64,000 nt of DNA from assembly GCA_964483115.1 (NCBI GenBank), contig CAYZZF010000001.1, forward strand, positions 19,907 through 83,906, written 5' to 3'. Below, in pieces: positions 3,427-44,917 of the stretch. A program made the translations under genes and the position numbers. The first letter of the stretch is position 1. The number at the start of each line of letters is the position of its first letter. Under the pieces are notes generated by a model. That model did no database searches. It had not been told where the DNA came from and worked only from the letters and a program-made list of their open reading frames with translations. The DNA comes from an uncultured Gammaproteobacteria bacterium (lineage in GTDB: Bacteria; Patescibacteriota; Microgenomatia; Levybacterales; UBA12049).

Positions 3427-4374
3427 TTATTTTATTCCTTCTCTCATTGTAATCATTTGCCAATTATTGGCATTTGCAGCTCCTATAATAGATGGAAGTG
3501 CAATTATATCATCAGGAATAGCATGTTGAAGAATAATGGTTCCTTGAAAAAAATTTTCAAATACGTTTCCAAGAATGTAGTTTATAGCGTCTTGATCAGT
3601 TCTTGGATATACTCGCCATCCGTTTGAATCTGAAGACCACATTGCAACCTTTAAACCTAGTTCCCCGCAAACTTTTAAAAGAAGAGGATTTTGATAGCCA
3701 AATATACCAGCACCGCCGGGTGGCCTTAAAAAGTACTGCCTGTAATCGCCCCCTACAGCTTCTTGTACAGCTTCTTGTTGTTTTAATATCTGATATCTTA
3801 TTTCATCTTCTGAAATATTTTCTAGCCATTCATGACTCCATGTATGATTTTCAATTGCATGCCCTTGCGCAACAGCTCTTTTATAGAGTTCTGGAGCAAA
3901 TCCTATAGTTCTACCGACTGGGTAGAATGTAAGATGTACATTATATTTTTGAGCAACATCAAGAGCTTGTTCTACTTGTGCGGGGTCCCAACCGTCATCA
4001 ATGGTAAGATATATTTGAGGTTTGTCTGCATTCCCTCTCCATACCACCTCTGCCGGTTTTGGTACTTCGATAGAAGCCGTGGGTTCGGGGGTAGGTTCTG
4101 GTATTGGTGTAGATTTAGGAGTAGAAGTTGATTCTGGAGTAGGTGATGGTTCTGGTGTTTTTGGCATAAGTTCCGAAATAGAAGTTGGTGTAGAAGCAAA
4201 AGGAGGTGCTTGATTACGACCTAGAAGTGGGTTAGGTGCATCTGGCTTTTCTGGCATGCCACAAGCGATTGTTATCAATCCTATACTTGTCGAGAGCGCA
4301 CCTTTTAAAATTTGTCGCCTAGAAAACTGCCGATTAAATATAAAGGTTTTTCGAATTTCTTTGTTGTTGCCCAT
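3427..4374 (-). CDS. polysaccharide deacetylase (CE4/NodB domain) lipoprotein with a Tat-type signal and a Pro/Thr linker
   Basis: NodB motifs TIDDG, HTWSH and LRPPGG. Leader contains SRRQILKG (twin-arginine motif) and ITIACG. Linker is TPEPSPTPESTSTPKSTPIPEPTPEPT. I chose the internal ATG at 4372-4374 because the longer ORF starts with TTG at 4416. Confidence 0.75.
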   Translation of the reverse strand: MGNNKEIRKTFIFNRQFSRRQILKGALSTSIGLITIACGMPEKPDAPNPLLGRNQAPPFASTPTSISELMPKTPEPSPTPESTSTPKSTPIPEPTPEPTASIEVPKPAEVVWRGNADKPQIYLTIDDGWDPAQVEQALDVAQKYNVHLTFYPVGRTIGFAPELYKRAVAQGHAIENHTWSHEWLENISEDEIRYQILKQQEAVQEAVGGDYRQYFLRPPGGAGIFGYQNPLLLKVCGELGLKVAMWSSDSNGWRVYPRTDQDAINYILGNVFENFFQGTIILQHAIPDDIIALPSIIGAANANNWQMITMREGIK

Positions 4375-4522
4375 ATTAGGGCAGCGTTTTATAGGATAAT
4401 AGATGGATACTATCAAATTACAGTCAATACGTCAAGGCCACAGCTTGACAAAGGTAATAGATCTATGATATTAAATTATTCAACTGTCTCAAAACTTCTA
4501 CGTTTCTGACTGCCCCAAAAAA

Positions 4523-5755
4523 ATGAAAAAAGAACGTAATTCTTCAGTTAAAAATTCTACTATTCCAGAAAACCTTTACAGGTCTAAGTTTTTAGAAGCT
4601 GTAAAGATTGTTTCCGACTCAAAAAATAAACTAGGTTTTATGCGCAAATTGGCAATTAGAGCCGCTATTTTGGCTCCAGCCTTTCTCTATGCTGCCTGTG
4701 CTGCAAGAGGCAATAACGATGAGGATTCTTTACCAAAATCATTCGCGAGTAATATCCCAAACGCAGCAAGTATTTTTGAGCCATCTCCTAGTCCAACTTT
4801 TGAAATCGTTTCTACACCAACTCCAACACCTGAATTAACTCTTGAGCCGACTCCACAACCAATCCCAAGTCCTACTCCTGAGCCAACGTTAGAGCCAACC
4901 CCAGAACCACCACAGGTTGATCTAAGTATTTGTCAACCCCAAGATACAAAGAAGGAAGGAACGCTCTATGTTACACCCAATATAGGTGTTAAAAAGAGAG
5001 TTTTTCCTTCTTTAGACTCGGTTTTTAATGGAGGAACTGCTTTAAATACAGAGCTTCTAATTGAATGTGAGAGAGATACCGATGGAGGGGTATGGTTTAG
5101 AGTTAATAGTTCTTACGGGGAATTTTGGATATCACAGCTTTATACAAGCAATGAACCGGTTTCAGTTCCGACACAGACGACATACACAGTACCACCAGAT
5201 AATTCCCGGTCGGAAATTAGACCAGGTGACGGCAACAAGATTATTCTGACATTTGATGATTCAGGGATGATGGAACAGATACTTGATATCTTAGACAGTT
5301 ACGGTGCCAAAGCCATTTTCTTCCCTACAGGTGACTATGCGAACAGTGTGCCCGATATTATACAGCGAGCCGAAAAAGAAGGCCATCTTGTCTGTAATCA
5401 CACAAAAGATCACGCAGATTTAACAACGCTTTCAGGTGAAGGAGTAAAGGAGGAAATTTTAGGTGGTGCTGGTGTGGGCGAATGTAATTTTCTTAGGCCT
5501 CCGTACGGGGCACACAATAATTTTGTTGATTCTATTGCAGAGAGTCTTGGTTATACAATTTTTATGTGGGATATAGATACAATGGATTGGGCAAGGCGCT
5601 ATCCCGGTGGTGATCAAGAGATTTTGAATATTGCATTATCCCAAGCTTATCCGGGTGCTGTCATATTGATGCACATGCACGTTCCTAATACAATAATTGC
5701 GCTTCCAGCAATACTTAAGGGATTAAAAGATGCTGGCTACGAATTACATTGGTAA
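4523..5755 (+). CDS. polysaccharide deacetylase (CE4/NodB domain) with a Pro/Thr linker and an SH3b-like middle domain
   Basis: NodB motifs LTFDDSG, HTKDHAD and LRPPYGA. Linker is TPTPTPELTLEPTPQPIPSPTPEPTLEPTPEPP. Hydrophobic leader ends in YAAC. An alternative start at the Met at 4640 (MRKLAIRAAIL) is possible. Confidence 0.75.
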   Translation: MKKERNSSVKNSTIPENLYRSKFLEAVKIVSDSKNKLGFMRKLAIRAAILAPAFLYAACAARGNNDEDSLPKSFASNIPNAASIFEPSPSPTFEIVSTPTPTPELTLEPTPQPIPSPTPEPTLEPTPEPPQVDLSICQPQDTKKEGTLYVTPNIGVKKRVFPSLDSVFNGGTALNTELLIECERDTDGGVWFRVNSSYGEFWISQLYTSNEPVSVPTQTTYTVPPDNSRSEIRPGDGNKIILTFDDSGMMEQILDILDSYGAKAIFFPTGDYANSVPDIIQRAEKEGHLVCNHTKDHADLTTLSGEGVKEEILGGAGVGECNFLRPPYGAHNNFVDSIAESLGYTIFMWDIDTMDWARRYPGGDQEILNIALSQAYPGAVILMHMHVPNTIIALPAILKGLKDAGYELHW

Positions 5756-5799: not shown

Positions 5800-6561
5800 T
5801 TGAATGTGGATAGAGTTTTTCTTTCTATTGTGGTCCCCTCTTATAATGAAATGGCAAATCTTCAAAAAGGAGTCTTAGATAAGGTTGCACATTTTTTAGA
5901 AAAACAAAAGTATCGGTATGAAGTTATTATTGTTGATGATGGGTCTACGGATGGAAGTGTGGAGTTTGTCGAAAACTTTATAAAAGATAACATAAACTTT
6001 AAAATTATTAAAGATAATCATCTTGGTAAAGCAGGAGCAGTGACTGATGGAGTACTTGAAGCAAGGGGTGAATATATACTTTTTGCCGATATGGATCAGG
6101 CAACCCCAATTGAGGAAATCGATAAACTCCTACCGCCTTTGAGAAACGGTTTTGATATTGCAATTGGTTCAAGACATTCCCAAAGGAAAGGTGCTCCCTG
6201 GACAAGACTTATTATGGCGAAAGGTATGATATTTCTCAGAACTTTGTTAATCGGCATTTCGGGAATTTCTGATACTCAATGTGGGTTTAAAATGTTTAGA
6301 CACGATATTGCAAAAAAACTTTTCGAGAAGATAAAAAATATTCATAAGGGTTTTAAAGAAATATCCGGATCTAATGTATCTGCAGGATTTGACATCGAGC
6401 TTTTGTATTTAGCACAGAAGCTAGGTTATAAGATTAAAGAGGTCTCCGTAAATTGGCTTTATGTTGAAACGCGAAGAGTAAATCCTGTAAGAGATTCGAT
6501 CGATGGTTTACTAGATCTTATTGGAATTAAGATTAATTCTATAAAAGGAATCTACAAATAG
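5800..6561 (+). CDS. GT2 polyprenyl-phosphate sugar synthase (DPM1/GtrB/CsbB-like)
   Basis: LSIVVPSYNE, IVDDGSTDGS, the DxD element ADMDQ and TQCGFKMFR, which are typical of dolichyl-phosphate mannose/glucose synthases. Confidence 0.75.
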   Translation: MNVDRVFLSIVVPSYNEMANLQKGVLDKVAHFLEKQKYRYEVIIVDDGSTDGSVEFVENFIKDNINFKIIKDNHLGKAGAVTDGVLEARGEYILFADMDQATPIEEIDKLLPPLRNGFDIAIGSRHSQRKGAPWTRLIMAKGMIFLRTLLIGISGISDTQCGFKMFRHDIAKKLFEKIKNIHKGFKEISGSNVSAGFDIELLYLAQKLGYKIKEVSVNWLYVETRRVNPVRDSIDGLLDLIGIKINSIKGIYK

Positions 6562-6562
6562 A

Positions 6563-7753
6563 ATGTCAAATCTCAAATCTCAAATCTCAAATCTCAAAAC
6601 TTTGGCATCTTTTTATTTGATAACAATTATTGCTTTATTCTTTTATTCTTTTACCCAAGTTGACTTAAATCTTACCTTGTCCAGGTGGTCTGTTTGGCAG
6701 GTAATTGAGAAATTTTTTCAGCATATAGGTTATTTTAACCGGCCACTCTCAACAAGTTTCTTTATTGCAATTATTGCATCGTTGTTTATCTTTTACATGA
6801 TATTTCTTTTCCTTTCTTACAAAAATAAGATTAGTGAAAAACAGGTATGGTATTTAATTATATTAACAGCTGTAATTTTATTATTTTCCTACAATGCATT
6901 TTCTTACGATTTATTCAACTATATCTTTGATGCAAAAATAATAACTTATTACCGTCAAAATCCGTATTTGCATCGTGCCCTTGATTTTCCTGCTGACCCG
7001 ATGCTTTCTTTTATGCGTTGGACGCATAGGTTTTATCCATACGGTCCGGTTTGGCTTGTCTTAACAGTTCCTCTATCGTTTGTTGGGTTTAATCACTTTC
7101 TTCCTACTTTTTTTCTTTTTAAGTTTCTCGGAGTCTTGAGTTTTCTAGGAACAGCCTTTTTTATAGGAAGGATTCTGCGCAAGATTTCTCCAGAAGATAA
7201 AATTTTTGGACTTATTCTTTTTGCATTTAACCCCCTAGTTATTATAGAAGGATTAGTATCGGCACATAATGATATGCCTATGATGTTTTTTGCCATATTG
7301 TCGCTATATCTCTTTTTAGAGAGGAAACATTTTTATTCATTTGTATCACTTCTTTTATCAATTGGGATTAAGTTTGCTACGGCATTTATAATTCCCGTTT
7401 ATGTTTATTTGCTTTTTAAGAGAAGACAAAAAGAGATCAACTGGAACAAAATCTTTATTTCGATAATTTTGCTTATGATTGTACCTATTATTATTGCAAC
7501 AATTAGGACCAATTTCCAACCATGGTATTTACTATATGTTCTGTCATTTACAGCTTTTATCAAAAAAAGTTTCTATGTGATTATTCCAGTTATCGTTTTA
7601 TCCTTTTTTTCTCTTTTAGAATATGTTCCTTTTCTATATCTTGGGAATTGGAATCCGCCGGTGCCGTTTATATTAAATTTGATTATGGTTATCTCAATTA
7701 TCGTCTCGATAGTTTTAATTATCGGCTGGAGATTTAGGCAAAAATATGCTTAA
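6563..7753 (+). CDS. polytopic membrane protein (about 10 TM), putative GT-C/DUF2029-like glycosyltransferase
   Basis: Hydrophobicity pattern. It is coupled 1 nt after the upstream DPM1-like gene. It begins with an in-frame (TCAAATC)x4 tract. Confidence 0.45.
   Translation: MSNLKSQISNLKTLASFYLITIIALFFYSFTQVDLNLTLSRWSVWQVIEKFFQHIGYFNRPLSTSFFIAIIASLFIFYMIFLFLSYKNKISEKQVWYLIILTAVILLFSYNAFSYDLFNYIFDAKIITYYRQNPYLHRALDFPADPMLSFMRWTHRFYPYGPVWLVLTVPLSFVGFNHFLPTFFLFKFLGVLSFLGTAFFIGRILRKISPEDKIFGLILFAFNPLVIIEGLVSAHNDMPMMFFAILSLYLFLERKHFYSFVSLLLSIGIKFATAFIIPVYVYLLFKRRQKEINWNKIFISIILLMIVPIIIATIRTNFQPWYLLYVLSFTAFIKKSFYVIIPVIVLSFFSLLEYVPFLYLGNWNPPVPFILNLIMVISIIVSIVLIIGWRFRQKYA
6566..6600 (+). repeat. (TCAAATC)x4 perfect plus one variant unit, in-frame immediately after the ATG of the CDS at 6563
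   Basis: Read directly: tcaaatc tcaaatc tcaaatc tcaaatc tcaaaac. Encodes SNLKSQISNLKT. Confidence 0.95.
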
Positions 7754-9278
7754 CTATTGGTATAATCTTTTTATGATAGTCAAAAAATACAGGTTTGAAA
7801 TTATTGCTGGTATCGCAATTTTTGTACTTTACTTTGTAACTCGCCTGTACAATATCATGTCTCTTCCAATTTTCACCGATGAGGCTATTTATACTCGATG
7901 GTCTCAGATTGCAAGATTTGATGCAAGCTGGCGATTTATTTCTTTGACAGACGGCAAACAGCCACTTTTTGTCTGGCTTAATATGACGGTGATGAGAATT
8001 ATTCGTGATCCTTTAATGGCAGGAAGAATAGTCTCGGTTTTTGCAGGATTTTTTACAATGCTCGGGCTTTTCTTTTTGGGCAATGAAATATTTAAAAATC
8101 GCTCCATAGGAATTTTATCTGCCACTGTCTATATTATTTTTCCGTTTGCTCTCGTTTACGACCGGATGGCACTTTATGACACTTTAGTGGGAACTTTTAC
8201 TGTCTGGAGCTTGTATTTTGAAATCCTTTTAATAAGGTATATTCGTCTTGATGTAGCATTAATTCTGGGAATAATACTGGGCGGCGGAGTTCTCACTAAG
8301 ACTTCAGGATTTTTTAATATCTATCTTGCTCCTTTTTTACTTCTTATTTTTGATTGGGGGAGCAAAAATAAATTAAAAAAATTAATAAAGTGGGCAGTAC
8401 TTATGGTCGTTGCTGTTATTCTTGCCTATGGATATTATTCTATTTTAAGACTCTCGCCTTTTTTCTACATCATAAATGAAAAAAATACAATTTTTATTTA
8501 TTCTTTTCGTGATTGGCTTTCTCACCCGTTTAATTTTTTCATAGGTAATATTAGAGGACTTTGGGATTGGTTTATAACATATATCACCTGGCCTTTTTTT
8601 ATTCTTATAATTTTATCTTTTTTCATTTCGCTAAAATTCACAAGAGAAAAAATTATTCTTGTAATTTGGTTTACTGTTCCTTTTGTCGCTCTTGCTCTTT
8701 TTGGAAGAGTCTTGTATCCCAGATTTATTCTTTTTATGACCTTGTCGCTCATTCCTCTTATAGCATTTTCCCTCACTGAAATATTTAAAATTTTGAAAAA
8801 TAAATATATATTGGTTGCACTTCTAATAGTCTTTTCTGTCCTGGCAATTCGGTCTGACTATCTAGTCCTCTCCGATTTTGCAAAAGCCCCGATTCCTCAG
8901 TCAGATCTTGGCCAGTATATAAATGATTGGCCCTCAGGGGGAGGAATAAGAGAGATAATTAATTATCTCTTGGATGAATCAAAAAAGGGTAAAATTTATG
9001 TTGCGTCACTTGGAACTTTTGGGTCTCTTCCCACATATTCCGTTGAAATTTATTTAGGAGATGATAAGAATATCGAAAAACGAGGAATATATCCTATTCC
9101 TGCAGAGATTCCTAAAGATTTAATTGAGAAGTCTAAAATAATGCCTACTTTTGTGCTTTTCTCAAATCAACATGAATTTGAAAAAGCTATTAAAAACTGG
9201 CCAATCTATCCTGTTATTGAGTACAAAAAAGGAATTAAAGATTCCTACTCAAGGCTATACAGGGTCCAATCAATCTAA
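7746..9278 (+). CDS. GT-C membrane glycosyltransferase, PMT/ArnT (GT39/GT83)-like
   Basis: Many TM helices. A TDEAIYTRWS loop-1 DE motif sits near the N-terminus. Confidence 0.55.
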   Translation: MLNYWYNLFMIVKKYRFEIIAGIAIFVLYFVTRLYNIMSLPIFTDEAIYTRWSQIARFDASWRFISLTDGKQPLFVWLNMTVMRIIRDPLMAGRIVSVFAGFFTMLGLFFLGNEIFKNRSIGILSATVYIIFPFALVYDRMALYDTLVGTFTVWSLYFEILLIRYIRLDVALILGIILGGGVLTKTSGFFNIYLAPFLLLIFDWGSKNKLKKLIKWAVLMVVAVILAYGYYSILRLSPFFYIINEKNTIFIYSFRDWLSHPFNFFIGNIRGLWDWFITYITWPFFILIILSFFISLKFTREKIILVIWFTVPFVALALFGRVLYPRFILFMTLSLIPLIAFSLTEIFKILKNKYILVALLIVFSVLAIRSDYLVLSDFAKAPIPQSDLGQYINDWPSGGGIREIINYLLDESKKGKIYVASLGTFGSLPTYSVEIYLGDDKNIEKRGIYPIPAEIPKDLIEKSKIMPTFVLFSNQHEFEKAIKNWPIYPVIEYKKGIKDSYSRLYRVQSI

Positions 9279-13331: not shown

Positions 13332-15077
13332 ATGAATTTTTTGAAAAAGTATCTAGGACTTCTAGTGGTTATTTTTCTTTCGATACCCTCTATTCTTTCT
13401 CTTTTTCACCCTGGGTTTTTCCCAATGCATGATGATACGCAAGTGGCGAGAGTTTTTGAGATAGGGAAGGCACTAAGAGATGGAATGTTTCCCGTGCGCT
13501 GGGTTGCAGATCTTGGATATGGATATGGTTACCCAATTTTTAATTTTTATGCACCGCTTGCTTATTATTTTGGAGGACTTCTAAGTATTTTAGGGTTTAA
13601 CGCACTTACCTCAACGAAAATTATGATGGGAACAGGAATTCTACTTTCAGGTATTTTTATGTATTTTTTTGCTCAGGAATTGTTTGGGAAGCTTGGAGGA
13701 GTAGTTTCAGGGTTATTTTATGTTTATGCGCCATATCATGCTGTTGATGTTTATGTTAGGGGCGATGTTGCGGAATTCTGGGCATACGCATTTATACCTT
13801 TAATGTTTCTTGGATTCTACAAATTAATCTCAAATCTTCCGCCTCGCAGCCAGACGAGTAAATCTAAAAACTTGAGATGGGTAATTGTTGGAGCGATTGG
13901 ATTTGCGGGAATTGTTCTATCTCATAATTTAACAGCTATGATGATAATACCATTTTTAATAATTATTCTATTATTCTATTGCTTCGTCGCTTTTAGAAAC
14001 AAGAACCTATTTACTATTTACTATTTACTATTTACTATTTTTTTGGGTTTACTTTTGTCTGCCTTTTATTGGTTACCTGCTCTTTTTGAAATGAAATCTA
14101 CAAATGTACTATCTCAAATTGGAGGAGGGGCAAATTTTCGAGATCACTTTGTTTGTTGGCAGCAGCTTTGGAGCTCTCCTTGGGGTTTTGGAGGTTCAAC
14201 CTCAGGGTGTATTGATGGAATATCTTTTATGGTTGGTAAATTATATATACTTATGTCTACAGCCGCAATTGTCTTAGCAACTTCTTTAATAAATAAAAAT
14301 TTAATCAGAAAAAAAGATAATAGCAAGATATTTTTTATTTTATTTTCAATTTTTGGACTGCTCGTTTCAGTATTCTTGACACTTGAAATATCTAAACCTG
14401 TTTGGGAGTTAATTTTCCCTATGGCATTTTTGCAATACCCATGGAGATTTCTTCTATTTACTTCGTTTTTTACTTCAGTTCTTGCCGGAGCGCTTTTCTG
14501 GTTTTTACGAATTTTATTTTATAAGTTTAGGCACTTTAATACTATATATTATTTAAGCGCAGTAATTGTGATCTTAGCTCTTATTTACCTTAACGCAAAA
14601 CTTTTTATACCACAAATAATTATTAACAAAAATAACAATGATTACACAAATAATGTTGCTCTCAAGTGGATCGCCTCAAAAATATCCGATGAGTATATGC
14701 CAAAAAACTTTAATAAACCTAAATCAGAAAACCAGATTGTAAATAACAAAATATTACCCGCAGAATCTAGTGTAAAAATTTTATACGGCGTTCAAGATAC
14801 TAAAAGTTTACAAGCTTTTATCGATGTTCCTAAAGATACAAAAGTTAAGATAAACACCGCCTTTTTTCCCGCATGGACTGCTTTTGTAGATGGTAAAAAA
14901 GCTGAGCTGTATGCAACAAATCAAGGAGTGAACATTTTTATGTCTTCGGGAAAACATACATTTAATATGGAGTTTATAGAAACGCCGATAGAAAAATTGG
15001 CTAATTTTATCTCTCTTACTGGCTTATTTATACTTATTATTGGTATAATTCCTCTAAAGAGAAGCCTATATAAATGA
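13332..15077 (+). CDS. polytopic membrane protein, GT-C-like family A, paralog 2
   Basis: Same N-terminal signature (LFHPGFFPMHDDT...GMFPVRWVADLGYGYGYP). Contains an in-frame (CTATTTA)x4 tract. Confidence 0.5.
   Translation: MNFLKKYLGLLVVIFLSIPSILSLFHPGFFPMHDDTQVARVFEIGKALRDGMFPVRWVADLGYGYGYPIFNFYAPLAYYFGGLLSILGFNALTSTKIMMGTGILLSGIFMYFFAQELFGKLGGVVSGLFYVYAPYHAVDVYVRGDVAEFWAYAFIPLMFLGFYKLISNLPPRSQTSKSKNLRWVIVGAIGFAGIVLSHNLTAMMIIPFLIIILLFYCFVAFRNKNLFTIYYLLFTIFLGLLLSAFYWLPALFEMKSTNVLSQIGGGANFRDHFVCWQQLWSSPWGFGGSTSGCIDGISFMVGKLYILMSTAAIVLATSLINKNLIRKKDNSKIFFILFSIFGLLVSVFLTLEISKPVWELIFPMAFLQYPWRFLLFTSFFTSVLAGALFWFLRILFYKFRHFNTIYYLSAVIVILALIYLNAKLFIPQIIINKNNNDYTNNVALKWIASKISDEYMPKNFNKPKSENQIVNNKILPAESSVKILYGVQDTKSLQAFIDVPKDTKVKINTAFFPAWTAFVDGKKAELYATNQGVNIFMSSGKHTFNMEFIETPIEKLANFISLTGLFILIIGIIPLKRSLYK
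14007..14041 (+). repeat. (CTATTTA)x4 perfect plus one variant unit, in-frame in the family-A gene at 13332
   Basis: Read directly: ctattta x4 then ctatttt. Encodes LFTIYYLLFTIF. Confidence 0.95.
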
Positions 15078-19103: not shown

Positions 19104-19873
19104 ATAAAATATCAGCTATAGTTATTGCAAAGAATGAAGAGGATATGATTGTAGATTGCCTTGAGTCTCTTACTTTTTGCGATGAAATTATTGTTATCGA
19201 TAACGGTTCAATCGATAGAACAAGAGATATCGCAAAGAAGATTGGTGCGAAAGTTTTTGAATACAAATCAAACGATTTTTCGCAGTTAAGGAATTTTGGA
19301 CTAAGCAAAACAACAGGCAATTGGATTTTATATGTTGATGCAGATGAAAGAATCTCGTCTCCTCTGGCAGACGAGATTCAATTCAAAATTCAAAATTCCC
19401 CCGCCTCTCCAAGCGAAGTGGAGCAGGTAAAATTCAAAATTTATAGATTGAAGAGAAAAAATTTTTACCTTGGGAATAATGAATGGCCTTATATTGAGAG
19501 ACTGGAAAGATTATTCAAAAAGGAAAGTCTTAAAGGCTGGAAAGGAAAATTACATGAAAGTCCTATTGTGGAGGGCAAAATAGGTGAGCTCGACGGATTT
19601 TTACTTCACTATACGCATATGAACCTTGCATCAATAGTAAATAAAACAATCGAATGGTCGAAGATTGAAGCAGAATTAAGGCTTAAAGCAGGGCATCCCA
19701 AAATGACATGGTGGCGTTTTCCGCGTGTTATGCTTTCTGCTTTTTTGGATTCTTATATTAAACAGGGAGGGTGGAGAGTGGGAACAGCAGGACTTATCGA
19801 AAGTATTTACCAGTCATTTAGCATATTTATAACCTACGCAAGACTTTGGGAAATGCAGAATAAGAAAAAGTAG
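19100..19873 (+). CDS. GT2 glycosyltransferase (WaaE/KdtX-like subgroup)
   Basis: ISAIVIAKNEEDMIVDCLESLTFCDEIIVIDNGSIDRT. I chose the ATG at 19100 (ATGA overlap with the upstream stop) rather than the ORF-track start 19037. Confidence 0.65.
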   Translation: MNKISAIVIAKNEEDMIVDCLESLTFCDEIIVIDNGSIDRTRDIAKKIGAKVFEYKSNDFSQLRNFGLSKTTGNWILYVDADERISSPLADEIQFKIQNSPASPSEVEQVKFKIYRLKRKNFYLGNNEWPYIERLERLFKKESLKGWKGKLHESPIVEGKIGELDGFLLHYTHMNLASIVNKTIEWSKIEAELRLKAGHPKMTWWRFPRVMLSAFLDSYIKQGGWRVGTAGLIESIYQSFSIFITYARLWEMQNKKK

Positions 19874-26558: not shown

Positions 26559-27502
26559 ACGTAAGCATTATTATTCCAAATTATAATGGAGAAAAGCTTT
26601 TAAAGAAAAATTTGCCGGAGGTTTTTAAAGCAGCAGTTAATTATAAAAATGGGGAAGTAGAAATTATTTTTGTTGACGATGGCTCCATTGATAAAAGTAC
26701 AACTTTTATCAAATCTCAAATCTCAAAACTCAAGACTCAAAACTTCGAATTGAAACTTCTTAAAAACCAGAAAAATCTTGGGTTTTCATCGACGGTAAAT
26801 CATGGGGCAAGAGAAGCAAAAGGAGATATTTTGGTTTTGCTGAATACAGATGTTATTCCGGAGAAAAATTTCCTGGAGCCATTGATAGAGCATTTTAAAG
26901 ATAATGATGTATTTGCGGTTGGGTGCATGGATAAAAGTGTTGAGGACAATCAAGTCATTTTAAGAGGTAGAGGTATTGGAAAATGGCAAAGAGGATTTTT
27001 GGTTCATGAAAGGGGGGAGGTTAATAAAAACAATACTCTTTGGGTAAGTGGCGGGAGCGGAGCTTTTAGAAAATCAATTTGGGATAAGCTTTCTGGGCTT
27101 AATGAGCTTTATAATCCATTTTACTACGAAGATATTGATTTATCCTACAGGGCTCTTAAGTCAGGATATAAATTATTGTTTGAACCCGACAGCGTAGCTT
27201 TGCACGAACATCAAAAAGGTATAATAAGAAGAAAATATTCAAACTTTAAAGTAAAGACAATTGCATATAAAAATCAATTTATTTTTGTTTGGGAGAATGC
27301 TACAGATATTGATATTCAATTTTTACATTTTTTATGGTTACCATACCATTTTATTAAGGCTGTTATAAGATTAGATTGGGCCTTTTTTCTTGGTTTTTTT
27401 GAAGCTTTTATTTTACTGCCGAAGGTTATAAAATTTAGTTTTAAGGCGCAAAAATTATTTATTAAATCAGATAAGGAAGTGGTGAAAGAATTTGAAAAAT
27501 GA
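26555..27502 (+). CDS. GT2 glycosyltransferase
   Basis: VSIIIPNYNGEKLL, FVDDGSIDKS and LLNTDVIPE. Has a heptamer tract inserted between DDGS and the NLGFS motif. Confidence 0.7.
   Translation: MNVSIIIPNYNGEKLLKKNLPEVFKAAVNYKNGEVEIIFVDDGSIDKSTTFIKSQISKLKTQNFELKLLKNQKNLGFSSTVNHGAREAKGDILVLLNTDVIPEKNFLEPLIEHFKDNDVFAVGCMDKSVEDNQVILRGRGIGKWQRGFLVHERGEVNKNNTLWVSGGSGAFRKSIWDKLSGLNELYNPFYYEDIDLSYRALKSGYKLLFEPDSVALHEHQKGIIRRKYSNFKVKTIAYKNQFIFVWENATDIDIQFLHFLWLPYHFIKAVIRLDWAFFLGFFEAFILLPKVIKFSFKAQKLFIKSDKEVVKEFEK
26709..26743 (+). repeat. (TCAAATC)x2 plus three variant units, in-frame in the GT2 gene at 26555
   Basis: tcaaatc tcaaatc tcaaaac tcaagac tcaaaac. Confidence 0.85.
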
Positions 27503-28215
27503 AATTATCAATTATAATGCCTGTTTTTAATGAGGAGAAAACAATACGAGATATTCTTGGAAAAGTGGTTGCTGTAGATATCCAAGGTGTTAGCAAAGAA
27601 ATTATTGTTGTTGATGACGGATCGACTGATGCTAGCGCATCTCAAATCTCAAATCTCAAATCTCAAAACTTAAATTTTAAATTTATACAACATAAAAAAA
27701 ATATGGGGAAAGGAGCAGCTGTTAGGGCAGGAATTGAAAATTCGACAGGGGATTATATCATAATTCAAGATGCGGATTTGGAATATGAGCCAAATGATAT
27801 AAAAAAACTTATTGCGCCAGTTCAAAAGGGCCAAGCACAGGTTGTATATGGGACAAGACTTAATCGCCTGCCGAATTTTACAAGAGATGAGAGAACCTTT
27901 CTTTTTCTGCTGCACTATCTTGGTAACAGATTCTTAAGTCTTGTAACAAGCATTTTATACAGACAGTGGATTACCGATATGGAAACCTGCTATAAACTTT
28001 TTCCCAAAAAAGCTTTAGAGAAAGTAAAACTTAATTCTAGAAGATTTGATTTTGAACCGGAAATCACTTCTAAGTTACTTAAGAAAGAGTATAAAATTTT
28101 AGAAGTACCAATCGTAACTAAACCTAGGGGATACGATGAAGGGAAAAAACTTCACACAATAAGGGATGGATCTATAGCTTTATGGACATTAATAAAATAC
28201 AGATTTATCGATTAA
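27499..28215 (+). CDS. GT2 polyprenyl-phosphate sugar synthase (DPM1/GtrB-like)
   Basis: LSIIMPVFNEE, VVDDGSTDAS and IQDADLEYEP. Has an (ATCTCAA)x4 tract after DDGSTDAS. Confidence 0.7.
   Translation: MKLSIIMPVFNEEKTIRDILGKVVAVDIQGVSKEIIVVDDGSTDASASQISNLKSQNLNFKFIQHKKNMGKGAAVRAGIENSTGDYIIIQDADLEYEPNDIKKLIAPVQKGQAQVVYGTRLNRLPNFTRDERTFLFLLHYLGNRFLSLVTSILYRQWITDMETCYKLFPKKALEKVKLNSRRFDFEPEITSKLLKKEYKILEVPIVTKPRGYDEGKKLHTIRDGSIALWTLIKYRFID
27639..27685 (+). repeat. (ATCTCAA)x4 perfect plus degenerate units, in-frame in the GT2 gene at 27499
   Basis: atctcaa x4 then aacttaa attttaa. Encodes SQISNLKSQNLNFK. Confidence 0.95.
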
Positions 28216-36302: not shown

Positions 36303-38026
36303 TGTTTGGGTTGAAAATGAATAAAAAAATTGTTTATCTTTGTCTTTTTTTGATTATTATTACTGCCTCAATATTAAGATTATGGCAGTTAGGAAATGTT
36401 CCGCCTTCTCCAGATTGGGATGAGGCTGCTCTTGGGTATAATGCATATTCGATTTTACATACAGGCCGCGACGAGTATGGAAAGTTATTGCCGATTGTAC
36501 TTAGGTCATTTGATGATTATAAGCCTGCTTTATATGCATATTTAGTCATTCCATTTATCAAAATAATTGGTCTAAATGTAGTCGCGGTAAGATTACCTTC
36601 AGTAATCTTTGGCATACTGACTGTTATTGCAACATATTTCTTGGTTAAAGAATTACTCGGCGAAAAACTCAAAGCTCAAAATGCAAATCTCAAAATTGTA
36701 ACTCAAAACTCAAAAGTTGAACCACTTGCTCTTTTAACAGCGTTTTTACTTGCAATTTCTCCCTGGCACATCCAATTTTCAAGAATTGCGTTCGAATCAA
36801 ATGTTGGTCTTGCATTTAATGTTTTCTTTGTATTTTTCTTTCTCAAAGGTCTTAAAAAACCATGGTTGCTTATTTTATCTGCTTTCTTTATGGGAATAAA
36901 TATATATGTCTATCAGAGTGAAAAAGTTTTTACCCCGCTTTTACTTTTAGCGCTTGTCGTGATATTTAGAAAAGAGCTTTTTTCTATTCCTAAAAAATAT
37001 ATTATTTATGCAGTAGTTATTGGTATTTTGGTGTTTTTACCAATGGCAGGATATATCATTAGCAACAAAAACGTTTTTGAAAGAGCGCAAGGAGTCAGTA
37101 TCTTTGCAGAGTCCTCACAGCTTTTGGAAGAAAATTCTAAAAAACTTCTTGTTGATAGGCAAAACAATGATTTCTTAGGTCTCATACTAGATAACCGCCG
37201 TATCGTTTTTGCCAAAGAGATTATATCAGGATATGTTTCGCACTTTAATCTTAATTGGCTTTTTATAACTGGTGATATTGCAAGGCATCATGCTCCTAAT
37301 ATGGGACTTTTGTATCTTTTCGAATTACCATTCTTGTTTGTTGGTATCTATGAGTTGATTTTTGGTAAGTTTGATAAAAAAATAAAGTTTTTAATATTTT
37401 CGTGGTTTCTTATTGCACCTATACCAGCGTCAATTACAAGTGGAGTGCCTCATGCGGTTAGGTCCCTCAATTTTCTTCCCATGTTCCAAATATTTATAGC
37501 ATTAGGAATAGTTAGCAGTATTGCTTTAATTTCAAATTTTAAATTTAAAATTTTAAATTTTAAAATATGGAAACTATTTGCTATTTGCTATTTGCTATTT
37601 GCTATTTTTAATTTTTTATATTATTTAGACCAATATTTTGTTCAGCTTAATTATTTTAACTCAAAAGATTGGCAGTATGGCTATAAACAAACAATAGATA
37701 CCGTTAAGCAGATAGAAGTAAAATATAAAAAAATTATTGTATCTAACCAGCCATATTTAGATCAGTCTTATATGTTTTTTCTCTTTTACTTAAAATACCC
37801 ACCCGAATTGTATCAGAAAGAATCAAAATTTGCTTCTGGGGGTTTTAGAGAAAATCATAAATTTGGAAAATTTGAATTTAGGCCATTTAATTTTGAAAAT
37901 GAAAAAGAAACAGAAGTTTTGTATATAGGAAGACCGCTTGATTTTCCGCAAAATGACTTAGGACAAGTAAAAACCATAAATTTTTTAGATGGAACTCCGG
38001 CAATAAAAATGGTTGAAAGATTATGA
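36299..38026 (+). CDS. GT-C membrane glycosyltransferase (ArnT/PMT_2-like), second tandem paralog
   Basis: GNVPPSPDWDEAALGYNAYSIL...DEYGKLLPI...YKPALYAYL. Carries a degenerate heptamer tract plus (AAATTTT)x4 and (CTATTTG)x4 tracts. Confidence 0.6.
   Translation: MMFGLKMNKKIVYLCLFLIIITASILRLWQLGNVPPSPDWDEAALGYNAYSILHTGRDEYGKLLPIVLRSFDDYKPALYAYLVIPFIKIIGLNVVAVRLPSVIFGILTVIATYFLVKELLGEKLKAQNANLKIVTQNSKVEPLALLTAFLLAISPWHIQFSRIAFESNVGLAFNVFFVFFFLKGLKKPWLLILSAFFMGINIYVYQSEKVFTPLLLLALVVIFRKELFSIPKKYIIYAVVIGILVFLPMAGYIISNKNVFERAQGVSIFAESSQLLEENSKKLLVDRQNNDFLGLILDNRRIVFAKEIISGYVSHFNLNWLFITGDIARHHAPNMGLLYLFELPFLFVGIYELIFGKFDKKIKFLIFSWFLIAPIPASITSGVPHAVRSLNFLPMFQIFIALGIVSSIALISNFKFKILNFKIWKLFAICYLLFAIFNFLYYLDQYFVQLNYFNSKDWQYGYKQTIDTVKQIEVKYKKIIVSNQPYLDQSYMFFLFYLKYPPELYQKESKFASGGFRENHKFGKFEFRPFNFENEKETEVLYIGRPLDFPQNDLGQVKTINFLDGTPAIKMVERL
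36665..36714 (+). repeat. degenerate 7-nt periodic tract (aaactca aagctca aaatgca aatctca aaattgt aactcaa aactcaa) in the GT-C gene at 36299
   Basis: Read directly. Confidence 0.75.
37534..37608 (+). repeat. two adjacent heptamer tracts, (AAATTT[T/A])x4 then (CTATTTG)x4 plus one variant unit, in-frame in the GT-C gene at 36299
   Basis: aaatttt aaattta aaatttt aaatttt ... ctatttg x4 ctatttt. Encodes FKILNFKIWKLFAICYLLFAIF. Confidence 0.9.
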
Positions 38027-39714
38027 GAAATCTTAAGATTCTTTTTCTTTTAAGTATTATTCTTTTGGCCGTATTCTTACGTTTTTATAAATTAAATACC
38101 GTTCCACCGAGTGCCTCTTTAGACGAGGCAAGCATTGGTTTTAATGCTTACTCAATTCTTCAAACAGGAGAGGATGAGTACGGATATAAATTTCCCATTC
38201 TTCTCAGAGCTTACGATGATTGGCGCCCTGCGCTTTACGTTTATCTTGTCATTCCATTTGTAAAAATTTTTGGTCTTGATGCTATATCGGTGCGCTTACC
38301 TTCGGTGATTCTTTCAGTTCTAACTATTTTAGCAACTTATTTTTTGGTAAAAAAACTTTTTAAACTCAAAACTCAAAACTCAAAACTCAAAAATACAATT
38401 CAAAATTCAAAAGAATCAGAAATTAGTAGTTTGAGATTAGAAATTTTAGCTTTGCTTTCAATAGGATTGTTCGCGATATCCCCATTGAGTGTATATATTT
38501 CAAGACTTGGCCACGAAGCAAATCTAGGACTATTTTTTGTTGTTTTTGGAATTTTATTTTTTCTGCTTTCGCAAAGAAAAAAAACGTTTCTTATTCTTTC
38601 TGCAATTTTTTTTGCTCTATCTTTATATTCATATCAGAGTGAAAAAATATTTGCCCCGCTTATAGTTATTGCTCTGGGTATTATATACAGAAAAGAGCTT
38701 TATAAGATAAAAAAAACTCTTTTACTATCTATTGTTATAGGATTATTAATTTCGATTCCAATTTTAGCTGCTTCTTTTTCTCCGCAAGCGCTTATTAGAT
38801 TTAAAGGAACCAGCGCATTTGATGCTTCTAATCCTTTATATAGTCAAAGCGCAAAACGTCTTCTTATAAGTCGGCAGAAGAGCGATATTATTGGTGAGGT
38901 TCTAAACAATAGACGAATAACAAGCGTATATATTTTTATTTCCCAATATTTTTCAAATTTTAATCCGCAATGGATTTTTGAGAATCGTGGAAACGAATCA
39001 TTTAAAGCGCCAGGAGTTGGACTTTTATATTTTTGGGAGGCTCCGTTTCTTTTGGTTGGGATATTTTCCCTTTTCAAAAATAAATATTCATCAAAGACAA
39101 AAGCTGTTGTCGCTTCTTGGGCTCTAATAGCTTTTGTTGCTCCTTCTATAACAACTCAAGCCCCTCATGCTATGAGATCTTACAATGTATTGCCAATACC
39201 TCAGATTTTGATTGGCCTTGGGATCCTTGAAATGGGTAAATTCTTCCCTAAAAAGCTTGGAATTATTTTGCTTGCCATTTTAGTGGTTTCTCAACTTTAC
39301 TACTTCTTTAATCAATATTTTTTTGTTTTTCCAAGAACGGAATCATCTTCATTTCAATATGCTTTATCAAATGTAATGCCTTATGTTTCTAGAGTCAAAA
39401 ATAAATATAAAACTGTTGTAATTTCAAATAGGGATAACTTATACCAATCTTATATGTTTTATCTTTTTTATACTAGATATAAGCCAACATTGTATTTAGG
39501 AAACGGAGGTACTGTATCTGGCGGATTTGCTCAAACGCATAAAATTGACAATCTTTTGTTTAAGCCCATTTCTTTTAAAGATAATGCAATAGAAGGGAAA
39601 ACCCTTTATGTAGGTAATCCTTCGGATTTTCCAAAATCCGAAGCTAGTCTTCTTATGTTTGAAAACCTTGATGGAAAACCTGCCGTAGAAGTGGTATCAA
39701 AAAATGAAAATTAA
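38023..39714 (+). CDS. GT-C membrane glycosyltransferase (ArnT/PMT_2-like), third tandem paralog
   Basis: NTVPPSASLDEASIGFNAYSIL...DEYGYKFPI...WRPALYVYL. Carries an (AAACTCA)x4 tract. Confidence 0.6.
   Translation: MRNLKILFLLSIILLAVFLRFYKLNTVPPSASLDEASIGFNAYSILQTGEDEYGYKFPILLRAYDDWRPALYVYLVIPFVKIFGLDAISVRLPSVILSVLTILATYFLVKKLFKLKTQNSKLKNTIQNSKESEISSLRLEILALLSIGLFAISPLSVYISRLGHEANLGLFFVVFGILFFLLSQRKKTFLILSAIFFALSLYSYQSEKIFAPLIVIALGIIYRKELYKIKKTLLLSIVIGLLISIPILAASFSPQALIRFKGTSAFDASNPLYSQSAKRLLISRQKSDIIGEVLNNRRITSVYIFISQYFSNFNPQWIFENRGNESFKAPGVGLLYFWEAPFLLVGIFSLFKNKYSSKTKAVVASWALIAFVAPSITTQAPHAMRSYNVLPIPQILIGLGILEMGKFFPKKLGIILLAILVVSQLYYFFNQYFFVFPRTESSSFQYALSNVMPYVSRVKNKYKTVVISNRDNLYQSYMFYLFYTRYKPTLYLGNGGTVSGGFAQTHKIDNLLFKPISFKDNAIEGKTLYVGNPSDFPKSEASLLMFENLDGKPAVEVVSKNEN
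38362..38410 (+). repeat. (AAACTCA)x4 perfect plus three degenerate units, in-frame in the GT-C gene at 38023
   Basis: aaactca x4 then aaaatac aattcaa aattcaa. Encodes KLKTQNSKLKNTIQNSK. Confidence 0.95.
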
Positions 39715-41351: not shown

Positions 41352-42179
41352 ATGAGAGAAACTCTGTCTGTTGTCTTGGCAACATACAACGAGGAAGGAA
41401 ATCTGAAAAAATGCCTTGATTCTGCCAAAGATTTAGCCGATGAAATTATTGTAGTTGATGGATTTTCAACTGATAGGACGGTTGAGATAGCAAAAAATTA
41501 TGGTGCTAGGATAAAGGTAACAACAAATAAGCCTAACTTTCATATCAATAAACAAATGGCAATTGATATGGCAATTTGCGATTGGATTCTTCAGCTTGAC
41601 GCGGACGAACGAGTTACACCGGAACTTAAAGAGGAAATACTAAAAATATTGACTTATGACTTAGGACCTAAGACTGAAGACCTAAGCCATAAATCAGAAG
41701 TCGTAAGCCCGAATGGTTATTGGATGCCAAGAAAAAATTGGTTCTTAGGAAGATTTCTTATGAAAGGCGGGCAATATCCGGATTACACCTTAAGACTTTA
41801 TAGAAGAGGTAAAGGAAGACTCCCGCAAAAAGATGTTCACGAGCAAGCAGAGGTTGAAGGAAAAGTTGGTTATCTTAAAAATGCTCTCTTGCATTACCCA
41901 TATAAAAATTTTTCGCACTACCTTTCTAAATGGGGTAATTATAATGATTTTTTCGCTCCGCAGATAAGGGAAGAGCAGAAAAACAAAAATATTATTCAAA
42001 AAATTTTTTATGGGTTAGGGTATATTTTTGTAAAACCGATTTATTGGTTCTTGATTACATATGTAAGACATAAAGGTTTTATAGATAGCTGGCAGGGTTT
42101 TGTTTTTTCTCTTTTCTCTTCCCTCAGATTTCCTGTATCATATATTAAGTATTTAGGACTGAGGACGATAAGACAATGA
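41352..42179 (+). CDS. GT2 glycosyltransferase (WaaE/KdtX-like subgroup)
   Basis: LSVVLATYNEEGNLKKCLDSAKDLADEIIVVDGFSTDRT. Confidence 0.65.
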   Translation: MRETLSVVLATYNEEGNLKKCLDSAKDLADEIIVVDGFSTDRTVEIAKNYGARIKVTTNKPNFHINKQMAIDMAICDWILQLDADERVTPELKEEILKILTYDLGPKTEDLSHKSEVVSPNGYWMPRKNWFLGRFLMKGGQYPDYTLRLYRRGKGRLPQKDVHEQAEVEGKVGYLKNALLHYPYKNFSHYLSKWGNYNDFFAPQIREEQKNKNIIQKIFYGLGYIFVKPIYWFLITYVRHKGFIDSWQGFVFSLFSSLRFPVSYIKYLGLRTIRQ

Positions 42180-43862: not shown

Positions 43863-44917
43863 ATATAGCAATAGATATCTCGCCCCTTAAGAGCGGACAT
43901 TTTTTACAACACAGAGTTAGAGGAACAGGTTTTTATATAGATAATTTAAAAAGATCATTAATGAAATATTTTCCAGACAATAAATACACTTTTTTTACTC
44001 GAGGAGAAAAACTGTCCAAAGATATAGACTTAGTTCACTATCCTTATTTTGAGCCATTTTTTTTGACACTTCCTCTAGTTAAAAATCGCAAATCAGCTAT
44101 TACAATTCATGATTTGACTCCTCTTGTTTTTTCAAATGCTTTTCCAAGAGGAATAAGAGGAGAAATTAAATGGCAAATTCAAAAAAAACTTTTGGAAAGA
44201 GCAGATGTAATTATTACAGATTCAGAATGTTCAAAAAAAGACATTACTAGGTATACTGGTATACCTGACAAAAAAATTAATGTCGTTTATCTTGCAGCAG
44301 GAGAACAGTTTAAAAGAATCAAGAATCAAGAATCAAGAATCAGGGATCTGAAAACAAAATATGGATTGCCTGAAAGGTTCGTACTCTATGTAGGCGATGT
44401 TACCTGGAATAAAAATCTGCCAAGGCTGATCGAAGCGATAAAAAAGATTAATGCTACTTTGGTTATGACTGGCAGGACTTTAGCAAGTAAAGATTTTGAC
44501 CGCAATAATCCTTGGAACCAAGATCTAGTTCGGGTTCAAGAATTGGCAAAAGACGATAAAAGAATTATCCGCTTGGATTTTGTTCCGACAGGAGATTTAG
44601 TCTTTCTCTACAATATGGCCACTGTCTTTGCAATGCCCAGCTTATATGAGGGGTTTGGCTTGCCGATTCTCGAGGCTATGAGCTGCGGTTGCCCTGTTGT
44701 AACATCAAAAGAGGGTTCTTTGGAAGAAATTGCAAAAGATGCAGCTTTTTATGTAGATGCATATAATGTCGAAAGCATTGCAAAAGGGATTAAACAATTA
44801 TTTGCAAGCGACAGCCTGAGAAGAGAATTTTCAAAAAAAGGACTGGAACAGGCGAAAAAATTTTCATGGAAAAAAACAGCAGAAGATACTTTAAAAGTAT
44901 ATAAGAAAGTATTGTAA
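43859..44917 (+). CDS. GT4 (GT-B fold) glycosyltransferase
   Basis: EGFGLPILEAMSCGCPVVTSKEGSLEEI. Carries an (AAGAATC)x4 tract. Confidence 0.7.
   Translation: MNIAIDISPLKSGHFLQHRVRGTGFYIDNLKRSLMKYFPDNKYTFFTRGEKLSKDIDLVHYPYFEPFFLTLPLVKNRKSAITIHDLTPLVFSNAFPRGIRGEIKWQIQKKLLERADVIITDSECSKKDITRYTGIPDKKINVVYLAAGEQFKRIKNQESRIRDLKTKYGLPERFVLYVGDVTWNKNLPRLIEAIKKINATLVMTGRTLASKDFDRNNPWNQDLVRVQELAKDDKRIIRLDFVPTGDLVFLYNMATVFAMPSLYEGFGLPILEAMSCGCPVVTSKEGSLEEIAKDAAFYVDAYNVESIAKGIKQLFASDSLRREFSKKGLEQAKKFSWKKTAEDTLKVYKKVL
44314..44341 (+). repeat. (AAGAATC)x4 perfect, in-frame in the GT4 gene at 43859
   Basis: aagaatc x4. Encodes KNQESRIRD. Confidence 0.95.

Follow-up and report, generated by a model that had tools for sequence, protein, structure and literature searches.

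A heptanucleotide repeat at the start codon of a Levybacteria glycosyltransferase gene: a candidate phase-variation switch seen only in the ON state

We analyzed a stretch of 64,000 nucleotides (nt) of contig CAYZZF010000001.1 (assembly GCA_964483115.1), referred to below as the window and numbered from its first letter, which comes from an uncultivated groundwater bacterium of the Candidatus Levybacteria, within the Candidate Phyla Radiation (CPR/Patescibacteria). In this window, the ATG (6563–6565, + strand) of a gene for a 396-residue polytopic protein, a predicted GT-C-type glycosyltransferase (6563–7753, +; the target gene), is followed directly by four perfect TCAAATC units (6566–6593, +), which form a slippage-prone core, and by a variant fifth unit, TCAAAAC (6594–6600, +), which closes the array. 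We directly observed the anatomy, frame logic and non-randomness of this tract, a hotspot for such arrays at the same gene start across species, their evolutionary lability, and an ON state everywhere. In the reading that we consider most likely, at a probability of roughly 0.5, the tract is a slippage-prone coding repeat with latent, probably low-frequency switching of the type known for neuO of Escherichia coli K1, and is currently fixed ON. The tract is a candidate switch, and phase variation is unproven.

The array occupies a tight gene junction. A single A (6562) separates the stop codon TAG (6559–6561) of the upstream gene from the ATG, which itself belongs to a variant first unit (AATGTCA compared to AATCTCA). 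A putative Shine-Dalgarno-like GGA (6547–6549, +, in AAAGGA) lies within the 3' end of the upstream gene, 13 nt before the ATG. Tandem Repeats Finder (TRF) reported a repeat of period 7 at 6562–6598 with 5.3 copies, 96% matches and a score of 67, which agrees with our direct reading of the sequence and with the original prediction of four TCAAATC units plus a variant unit right after the start codon. No G occurs between 6566 and 6600, the core units are open in all three frames, and the array supplies codons 2–13 of the protein, whose N-terminus reads MSNLKSQISNLKTLASF.

When arrays of at least 3.5 copies were counted across the window, 10 of period 7 were found against 0.0 expected from 30 first-order Markov simulations, and the same count gave zero arrays at periods 5, 6 and 8–12. 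The tract is a genuine, non-random heptanucleotide microsatellite, and it passes the screen of PhasomeIt, whose threshold is at least three repeats for units of 6–9 nt. Chance low complexity in an AT-rich genome (the window has 32.7% GC) or an assembly artefact, given that short-read assemblers can mis-size repeats and that contigs of the Logan assemblies break at the tract, is effectively refuted by the excess of arrays and by independent assemblies: the Logan assemblies of two runs (SRR5161805 and SRR5161795) reproduce both sides of the tract at 99.9–100% identity, and the same array occurs in independent assemblies of other species.

Since 7 is not a multiple of 3, a slip by a single unit truncates the protein. 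We rebuilt the gene in silico with 0–9 units and obtained a full-length product at 1, 4 and 7 units only; products of 9–42 residues resulted at 0, 2, 3, 5, 6, 8 and 9 units, and a slip by one unit in either direction from the present four left 16–35 residues. Barring re-initiation, this bears out the earlier claim that a one-unit slip would abolish the protein, and no alternative start rescued the out-of-frame unit counts. As to the check suggested with that claim, whether alleles of 3 or 5 units open frames with downstream starts, the closest in-frame alternatives, TTG at 6602 (6602–6604, opening the first transmembrane (TM) helix) and TTG at 6617, both lack a Shine-Dalgarno sequence, and initiation at either would drop the Lys-containing, positively charged tail. 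As a non-triplet repeat within a reading frame, immediately 3' of the ATG, the tract has the architecture of a switch. A programmed ribosomal frameshift site was considered and rejected, as TCAAATC is not a slippery heptamer of the form X XXY YYZ and no downstream structure was found.

The position of the array was compared across 160 orthologous loci from species-representative genomes and Joint Genome Institute (JGI) metagenomes, and in same-species contig sets. Arrays of at least three units were scored in a hotspot zone, defined as the stretch of 130 nt that precedes the first TM helix or the conserved motif YSFTQVDL. Period-7 arrays were present in this zone in 34 of 155 loci, a density of 1.69 per kb compared to 0.027 per kb elsewhere. 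Under a uniform start-zone rule, 31 of 151 target genes carried an array and none of the 1083 other genes in these loci did (Fisher p=3e-30, a value that is overstated because the loci are not phylogenetically independent, although the contrast is still plain); the window's remaining genes gave 0 of 44. By period, the start zones of the target orthologs held 33 arrays of period 7, 7 of period 6 and 6 of period 4.

These arrays are labile in evolution. Unit sequence varies among species (AAATCTC, AATTTTC, AAATTTC, AAAATTC, AAAGTCA and AAGTTCA), and on a neighbour-joining tree the arrays fall in one large clade and are patchy within it. Parsimony on the ortholog tree requires at least 19 changes of presence or absence and at least 28 changes of unit. 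Between species that share an array, fourfold degenerate sites have reached saturation (~40% identity); despite that saturation, an array of ~35 nt is identical in the window and in loci L097 and L113, and an AATTTTC array is identical in seven species. Loci L097, L098, L026 and L101, whose proteins are 84–88% identical, carry 5.4, 3.4, ~2 and 4.9 units, the last with a 30-nt insert. P0008 and P0122, two proteins of the same 90%-identity cluster, differ by 17 residues at the tract site, equal to three units plus the insert, and P0019 and P0126, also from one 90%-identity cluster, have different arrays on identical C-terminal halves. Both pairs come from Rifle-type groundwater samples and combine entirely different N-terminal arrays and first helices with identical C-terminal halves in proteins at least 90% identical overall, a pattern suggesting that the target gene is a recombination mosaic at its 5' end.

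In the mechanism that we propose, the tract would be one length state, of four units, of a slippage locus that is dynamic in evolution and lies at the junction between the upstream glycosyltransferase family 2 (GT2) gene and the target gene in many Levybacteria. Slippage would be the generating process of an array that has been repeatedly gained, lost and changed in unit sequence, and that is conserved as a locus and not as a sequence. Fixed states keep the frame, with a tail of ~60 nt without an array and ~81 nt with one, and mechanistically the element would work as an ON/OFF frameshift switch of the neuO type.

Measured from the start codon to the motif, the tail has a modal length of 60 nt in loci without an array (34 loci) and of 81 nt in loci with one (13 of 34), and these two classes differ by three units. 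The tail-length distribution of the orthologous loci showed nothing near 102 nt, and no ON state of seven units was seen. Copy numbers in orthologous arrays range from 3 to 5.6 units, which speaks against an active switch, as does the position of some arrays: the array follows the start in 25 loci, includes the ATG in 4 and lies upstream of the start in 5 (two of which, L031 and L132, are possibly CTG-start cases), and in these 5–9 orthologs slippage would not shift the frame. Recurrent changes of three units alone do not prove that OFF intermediates were tolerated, because a route free of OFF states exists. In L098 the ATG lies in the second unit; compared to L097, this locus has two units fewer and its ATG one unit further in, so that the difference in coding length comes to exactly three units. 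A single C-to-G change suffices to create an ATG in any AAATCTC unit, and relocation of the ATG within the array therefore provides a path from 60 to 81 nt without any OFF state. In a separate observation, the N-terminus of P0058 and P0103, MSNVKCQMSNVKL, implies from the protein alone an (AATGTCA)n array with an ATG in every unit; such an array would give starts in all three frames in turn and would make expression robust to slippage.

All 34 orthologous arrays were in-frame with a plausible start (ATG, TTG, GTG, or a CTG or ATA that forms NTGA or ATAA with the overlapped GT2 stop), and no OFF allele was present among these 34 metagenome consensus sequences. Locus L165, the sole candidate, was rejected as an OFF allele, as its array is intergenic and its ATG and open reading frame (ORF) are intact. 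None of ~25 internal arrays breaks an ORF, which also speaks against a switch. Within species, 17 contigs of one species were all identical, with no indel in 6 kb; five same-species pairs with arrays of 3–4.7 units were identical; and the array of P0004, the closest analog (5.4 units) and the only member of its cluster, was the same on 9 contigs. P0047 (400 residues), P0052 (392 residues) and P0068 (378 residues) were rejected as length alleles, since they reflect three different calls of the start codon on DNA that is identical in 17 contigs. All natural copies seen are ON, and the locus therefore acts like a coding repeat that is tolerated rather than like a free-running contingency locus. 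In an array of just four units, slippage would be expected to be infrequent and the switching rate low.

Exact look-up of neighbouring proteins led to the window's species in the two Logan assemblies only. Both are broken inside the tract, with ends compatible with four units: at least four units are present on the left, where one contig (L179) ends at 6594, and three units plus the variant on the right, where two contigs (L177 and L178) start at 6573. We rejected these breaks as evidence of polymorphism, since a 33-mer common to the tract and to an array at 27639 suffices to branch a k=31 graph. The left contig ends 5 nt short of the position predicted from the shared 33-mer (6594 and 6599, respectively). 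Perfect arrays of 34 nt at 14007 and 37574 are traversed by unbroken contigs in the two samples. Contigs also end at a perfect 31-nt (AAACTCA)x4.4 array at 38362–38392 (L182 ends at 38390 and L180 starts at 38363), which has no 21-mer or longer in common with anything else in the window; this break could reflect another array of this kind in the genome outside the window, or an n+1 allele in the population.

The neuO gene encodes the polysialic-acid O-acetyltransferase of prophage CUS-3 in E. coli K1. Its variable-number tandem repeat (VNTR), poly-psi, has the unit AAGACTC, starts 2 nt after the ATG and occurs naturally in 2–93 copies, typically ~20, and the gene is ON solely when the copy number is a multiple of three. 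Each set of three units specifies an RLKTQDS heptad; the repeat domain is disordered, and activity rises with the number of heptads. Among 64 complete genomes, 3–53 repeats were found and 65.6% were OFF, and in culture 93% had 21 repeats, 1.9% had 20 and 5.4% had 22. The likeness to our tract is extensive. AAGACTC and AAATCTC are identical at 5 of 7 bases in register, the array lies within 0–2 nt of the start codon, a full-length product arises at every third copy number only, and the heptads RLKTQDS and (S)NLKSQI(S) have LK-Q-S in common. In both cases the repeat-encoded N-terminal extension is dispensable or disordered and the gene product is an enzyme that modifies a cell-surface glycan, here by its predicted family. 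The earlier description of a membrane protein with its tract at the classic switch position was thus apt, the protein being polytopic and the architecture matching that of a proven switch.

The differences are equally clear. Four units, and 3–5.6 in orthologs, are far below the experimentally switching heptanucleotide tracts such as neuO; none of our arrays is OFF, and no polymorphism was seen in same-species contigs, whereas neuO shows 2–5% of n+1 and n−1 variants in culture. The proteins are unrelated, a left-handed beta-helix acetyltransferase in one case and a polytopic GT-C glycosyltransferase in the other: comparison of the target with the NeuO family revealed no hexapeptide-repeat left-handed beta-helix acetyltransferase domain, only matches of the PF26314/GT87 type. 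Moreover, neuO is phage cargo in a pathogen, whereas the target gene is a chromosomal gene, conserved phylum-wide, in groundwater CPR bacteria. By this comparison, the resemblance is one of switch architecture and not of descent, and none of neuO's population behaviour is common to the tract.

A reading that we rank second, and regard as possible but clearly less probable, is that of a true contingency locus. Second-order selection would then maintain a random, reversible switch that turns one extracytoplasmic glycosylation step ON or OFF, for instance as a means of diversifying a surface glycan that phages use or that serves host attachment, and OFF minorities would be present in every population. 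The architecture is identical to that of neuO (a heptanucleotide after the ATG, ON at every third count, one heptad per three units) and the PhasomeIt threshold is exceeded, yet OFF states amount to 0 of 34 orthologous and 0 of ~25 internal arrays compared to 65.6% for neuO, and the narrow range of copy numbers, with no seven-unit state, contrasts with its 3–53 or 2–93. Lin and Kussell proposed that an N-terminal excess of simple sequence repeats (SSRs) beyond structural tolerance is a sign of phase variation; here such frame-breaking enrichment is extreme and specific to one gene, and the purity of the arrays persists despite saturated synonymous divergence. Against this stand the identity of same-species contigs (17 contigs, five pairs, and P0004 on 9) and the orthologs whose array precedes or spans the start, where unit changes are frame-neutral. 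The setting also fits, a surface-glycan enzyme in a large glycosylation island with heptamer arrays in a dozen other transferase genes, and the contig break at 38362, which no repeat in the window explains, would fit an n+1 allele; the perfect arrays at 14007 and 37574 assembled unbroken. The original prediction of phase variation is accordingly sustained as to architecture, cross-species dynamism and association with the gene start, and not as to population behaviour, given the lack of an OFF allele in 34 arrays, the lack of same-species length polymorphism, and the low and narrow copy number.

The reading that we prefer, a tolerated coding repeat with latent switching, is itself opposed by several points. 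The statement that all copies are ON is weaker than it would be for clonal isolates, because a metagenome consensus hides minority OFF alleles, and the dependence among loci noted above affects the hotspot statistics. The rate of slippage could suffice for true phase variation, or could be effectively zero. Simple tolerance of a neutral repeat does not predict a gene-specific hotspot, nor does it predict that the frame-breaking period 7 is favoured over the frame-neutral periods 6 and 9. Together, hotspot and choice of period hint at selection for mutability or at another function.

One such function would be exerted at the level of the mRNA, where a G-free repeat might keep a weak, stop-overlapping start unstructured or bind proteins of the S1/Csp type, thereby aiding re-initiation after the GT2 gene; the repeat structure would then be merely the easiest way of generating G-free sequence. 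The tract and most orthologous units (AAATCTC, AATTTTC, AAATTTC and AAAATTC) lack G, ortholog starts are weak, vary among TTG, GTG, CTG and ATA, and share bases with the GT2 stop (NTGA or ATAA), and the array may lie after, across or upstream of the start, as expected for action in the initiation region. The predicted fold of 6533–6642 leaves the array as a 30-nt unpaired loop, but pairs the ATG in a stem and does not differ significantly from shuffles (z=-1.45). Composition alone would suffice for this role and leaves the exact tandem periodicity and the period of 7 unexplained; in addition, array-less orthologs have equally A-rich starts, such as ATGAAAAAA, and the same units occur deep inside other ORFs of the window, where no initiation occurs. 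We consider this explanation improbable. A structured RNA or known RNA family was rejected on the basis of the same fold and of an Rfam scan of the region, which gave no match. A promoter and terminator search on both strands gave nothing above background.

An explanation of slightly lower probability still is a function of the encoded peptide, in which an amphipathic heptad tail would modulate the enzyme, just as NeuO becomes more active with a growing number of RLKTQDS heptads. Three units encode one heptad (SNLKSQI) in which Leu and Ile recur at spacings of 3 and 4 residues; the peptide is mildly amphipathic (hydrophobic moment 1.21 for SNLKSQISNLKT), tail lengths are quantised (60 or 81 nt), and in a GT2 paralog the same heptad replaces a surface helix without change of length. 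The character of the peptide is not conserved between species (SNLKSQI, FSIFNFQ, KFKIQNL, VQSSKFK), selection acting on the peptide would leave synonymous positions free to diverge, and some arrays are untranslated.

Several lines of evidence suggest that the target gene encodes a polytopic GT-C glycosyltransferase of the MptA/B family (GT87-like). In precomputed annotation, PF26314 (MptA_B_family) is assigned to P0001 and to all 120 listed homologs (2530 homologs in total), and hydropathy supports a polytopic protein whose first TM helix, LASFYLITIIALFFYSF, spans residues 14–32 (6602–6658, +). The match to Pfam GT87 (E=7.8e-5, 23 bits) lies under the gathering cutoff of 25 bits, and the match to TIGR03459 (MptA; E=5e-12) lies far under the equivalog cutoff, so that the target is a member of the family and not an MptA equivalog. 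As a GT-C enzyme, it would take its sugar from a lipid-linked donor. Across 27 sequences, Asp34 in YSFTQVDL does not vary, nor do D116, D123 and D141. A sequence search of solved structures with the target detected no relative, and exact look-up of the target protein returned no record. From the predicted topology, the array-encoded residues 2–13 would form a cytoplasmic N-terminal tail. Target orthologs start with the same MSN(L/F/I)K peptide, all have Lys or Arg residues before the first TM helix, and they are preceded by a Shine-Dalgarno-like sequence (GGAG or GGGGA) 6–13 nt before the start.

The upstream gene (5800–6561, +) encodes a GT2 glycosyltransferase (Pfam PF00535, E=1.3e-28) that resembles polyprenyl-phosphate sugar synthases of the DPM1/ArnC type, in keeping with the DPM1-like gene, with its stop 1 nt before the ATG, of the original prediction. 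Matches to NCBIfam models of ArnC-type, dolichyl-phosphate hexose transferase and PpgS proteins were sub-threshold. Downstream, a GT-C gene of the PMT_2 family (7746–9278, +) has its ATG overlapping the last 8 nt of the target gene. Translation of the two is probably coupled, and because of this overlap an OFF allele of the target could have a polar effect, lowering translation of PMT_2. The gene order GT2, target, PMT_2, YfhO is kept in orthologous loci of other species. At the GT2/target junction of L105, L137, L141, L139, L162, L148, L116 and others, we observed a 4-nt overlap of ATGA, TTGA, GTGA, CTGA or ATAA; judged from sequence, these variable, stop-overlapping starts suggest termination-reinitiation coupling with a relaxed start-codon requirement.

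The target gene lies in a glycosylation island of more than 55 kb (5800–64000), nearly all of it on the + strand and a large share of a ~1 Mb CPR genome. The island includes ~9 GT2 genes, 5 GT4 genes and at least 12 GT-C genes (PMT_2, YfhO, GT87-like and AftD-like, among them an AftD-like protein of 1185 residues, at 58207–61764, with a carbohydrate-binding module), together with flippases and sugar-nucleotide enzymes. Before it lie two divergent polysaccharide-deacetylase-like genes (3427–4416, −, and 4523–5755, +) with low-complexity linkers rich in Pro, Thr and Glu (PTPEPT-type).

The tract had been called the cleanest switch architecture in the window. It is not the only such tract, as at least 12 further heptamer arrays, all in-frame, lie within long ORFs of the window, and two of these have the same unit. 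One (27639–27675, +; three TCAAATC plus TCAAAAC) lies within another GT2 gene and shares the 33-mer mentioned above with the tract; the other (26707–26744, +; TCAAATC, TCAAAAC and TCAAGAC) lies within a third GT2 gene, where it follows the DDGS motif at the corresponding position. The remaining arrays were found at 14007–14040, 36664–36715, 37528–37564, 37574–37607, 38362–38412, 44314–44342, 62631–62662 and 63336–63367, and also at 19380–19398, 41650–41675 and 63089–63114. The arrays of the window sit in ORFs for glycosyltransferases or membrane proteins: CTATTTA and CTATTTG arrays encode hydrophobic LFTIYYL and LFAICYL within membrane segments, TCAAATC and AAACTCA arrays encode hydrophilic heptads in loops, and in two PMT_2 paralogs the arrays form insertions of 14–24 residues where a third paralog has YNSKNK. 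Their density is ~10 times that of other Levybacteria (10 in 64 kb compared to 20 in 1.28 Mb), where 65 of 80 loci have no array and periods 5, 6 and 8 or more gave 6, 8 and 0 arrays, respectively.

Heptanucleotide tracts and repeat-rich glycan islands are known from other bacteria. Repeats upstream of hmw1A and hmw2A in Haemophilus and the CATTTCT tracts of Neisseria (3–26 repeats) resemble our tract as slipped-strand units of 7 nt near the 5' end of surface-structure genes, and differ in copy numbers that are much higher and polymorphic between isolates. The phasomes of Campylobacter and Haemophilus likewise have many genes of one glycan-biosynthesis island each with a frame-breaking simple repeat, although these are poly-G or tetranucleotide tracts with a large fraction of loci OFF per genome. 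The arrays here are all in-frame and mostly encode structurally sensible segments (TM helices, loops). The hmw repeats act on transcription or the 5' untranslated region and not on the reading frame. The short tandemly repeated repetitive (STRR) sequences of cyanobacteria show a comparable lineage-specific excess of tandem heptanucleotides with none at neighbouring periods; they are mostly intergenic and GC-richer, whereas our arrays are AT-rich and overwhelmingly inside ORFs, and the comparison implies no homology or shared mechanism.

Phase variation driven by SSRs is considered a strategy of host-adapted pathogens with small genomes, and none of the papers searched linked heptanucleotide repeats or phase variation to CPR/Patescibacteria. 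If the tract does switch, it would offer a testable handle on surface-glycan variation in episymbiotic, phage-exposed ultra-small bacteria. Even without switching, it poses an evolutionary puzzle, in that a frame-breaking period is specifically and recurrently tolerated at one junction across dozens of species and frame-neutral periods are absent, apart from 7 period-6 arrays in the start zones. Speculatively, and with considerable doubt, the Levybacteria might maintain a conserved heptanucleotide contingency locus at this gene start, which in this genome, together with the frame-breaking arrays of a dozen further glycosylation genes, would amount to a combinatorial phasome of surface glycans. 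It would be the first known beyond pathogens and commensals adapted to a host, and its arrays could arise from a process specific to period 7, with small GC-rich palindromes capping some of them.

Such short GC-rich palindromes were seen exactly within heptamer arrays, splitting them in two short halves and always in-frame. They occur in the window at 19399–19428 and 13838–13858, in L101 (1001–1030), in L133 and L134 (~73 nt before the anchor motif), and at the junction in L001–L016 and L120. A widespread mobile element was rejected as an explanation for the 30-mer at 19399–19428, as only one additional copy was found among 176 loci, and the palindromes might conceivably act as repeat stabilisers. 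The 30-mer, CCCCGCCTCTCCAAGCGAAGTGGAGCAGGT, agrees at 23 of 30 positions with the insert in the L101 array, which belongs to another gene and another species, and further GC-rich palindromes read TCCGCCATGGGCGGA and CCCGCAAAAGGCGGG.

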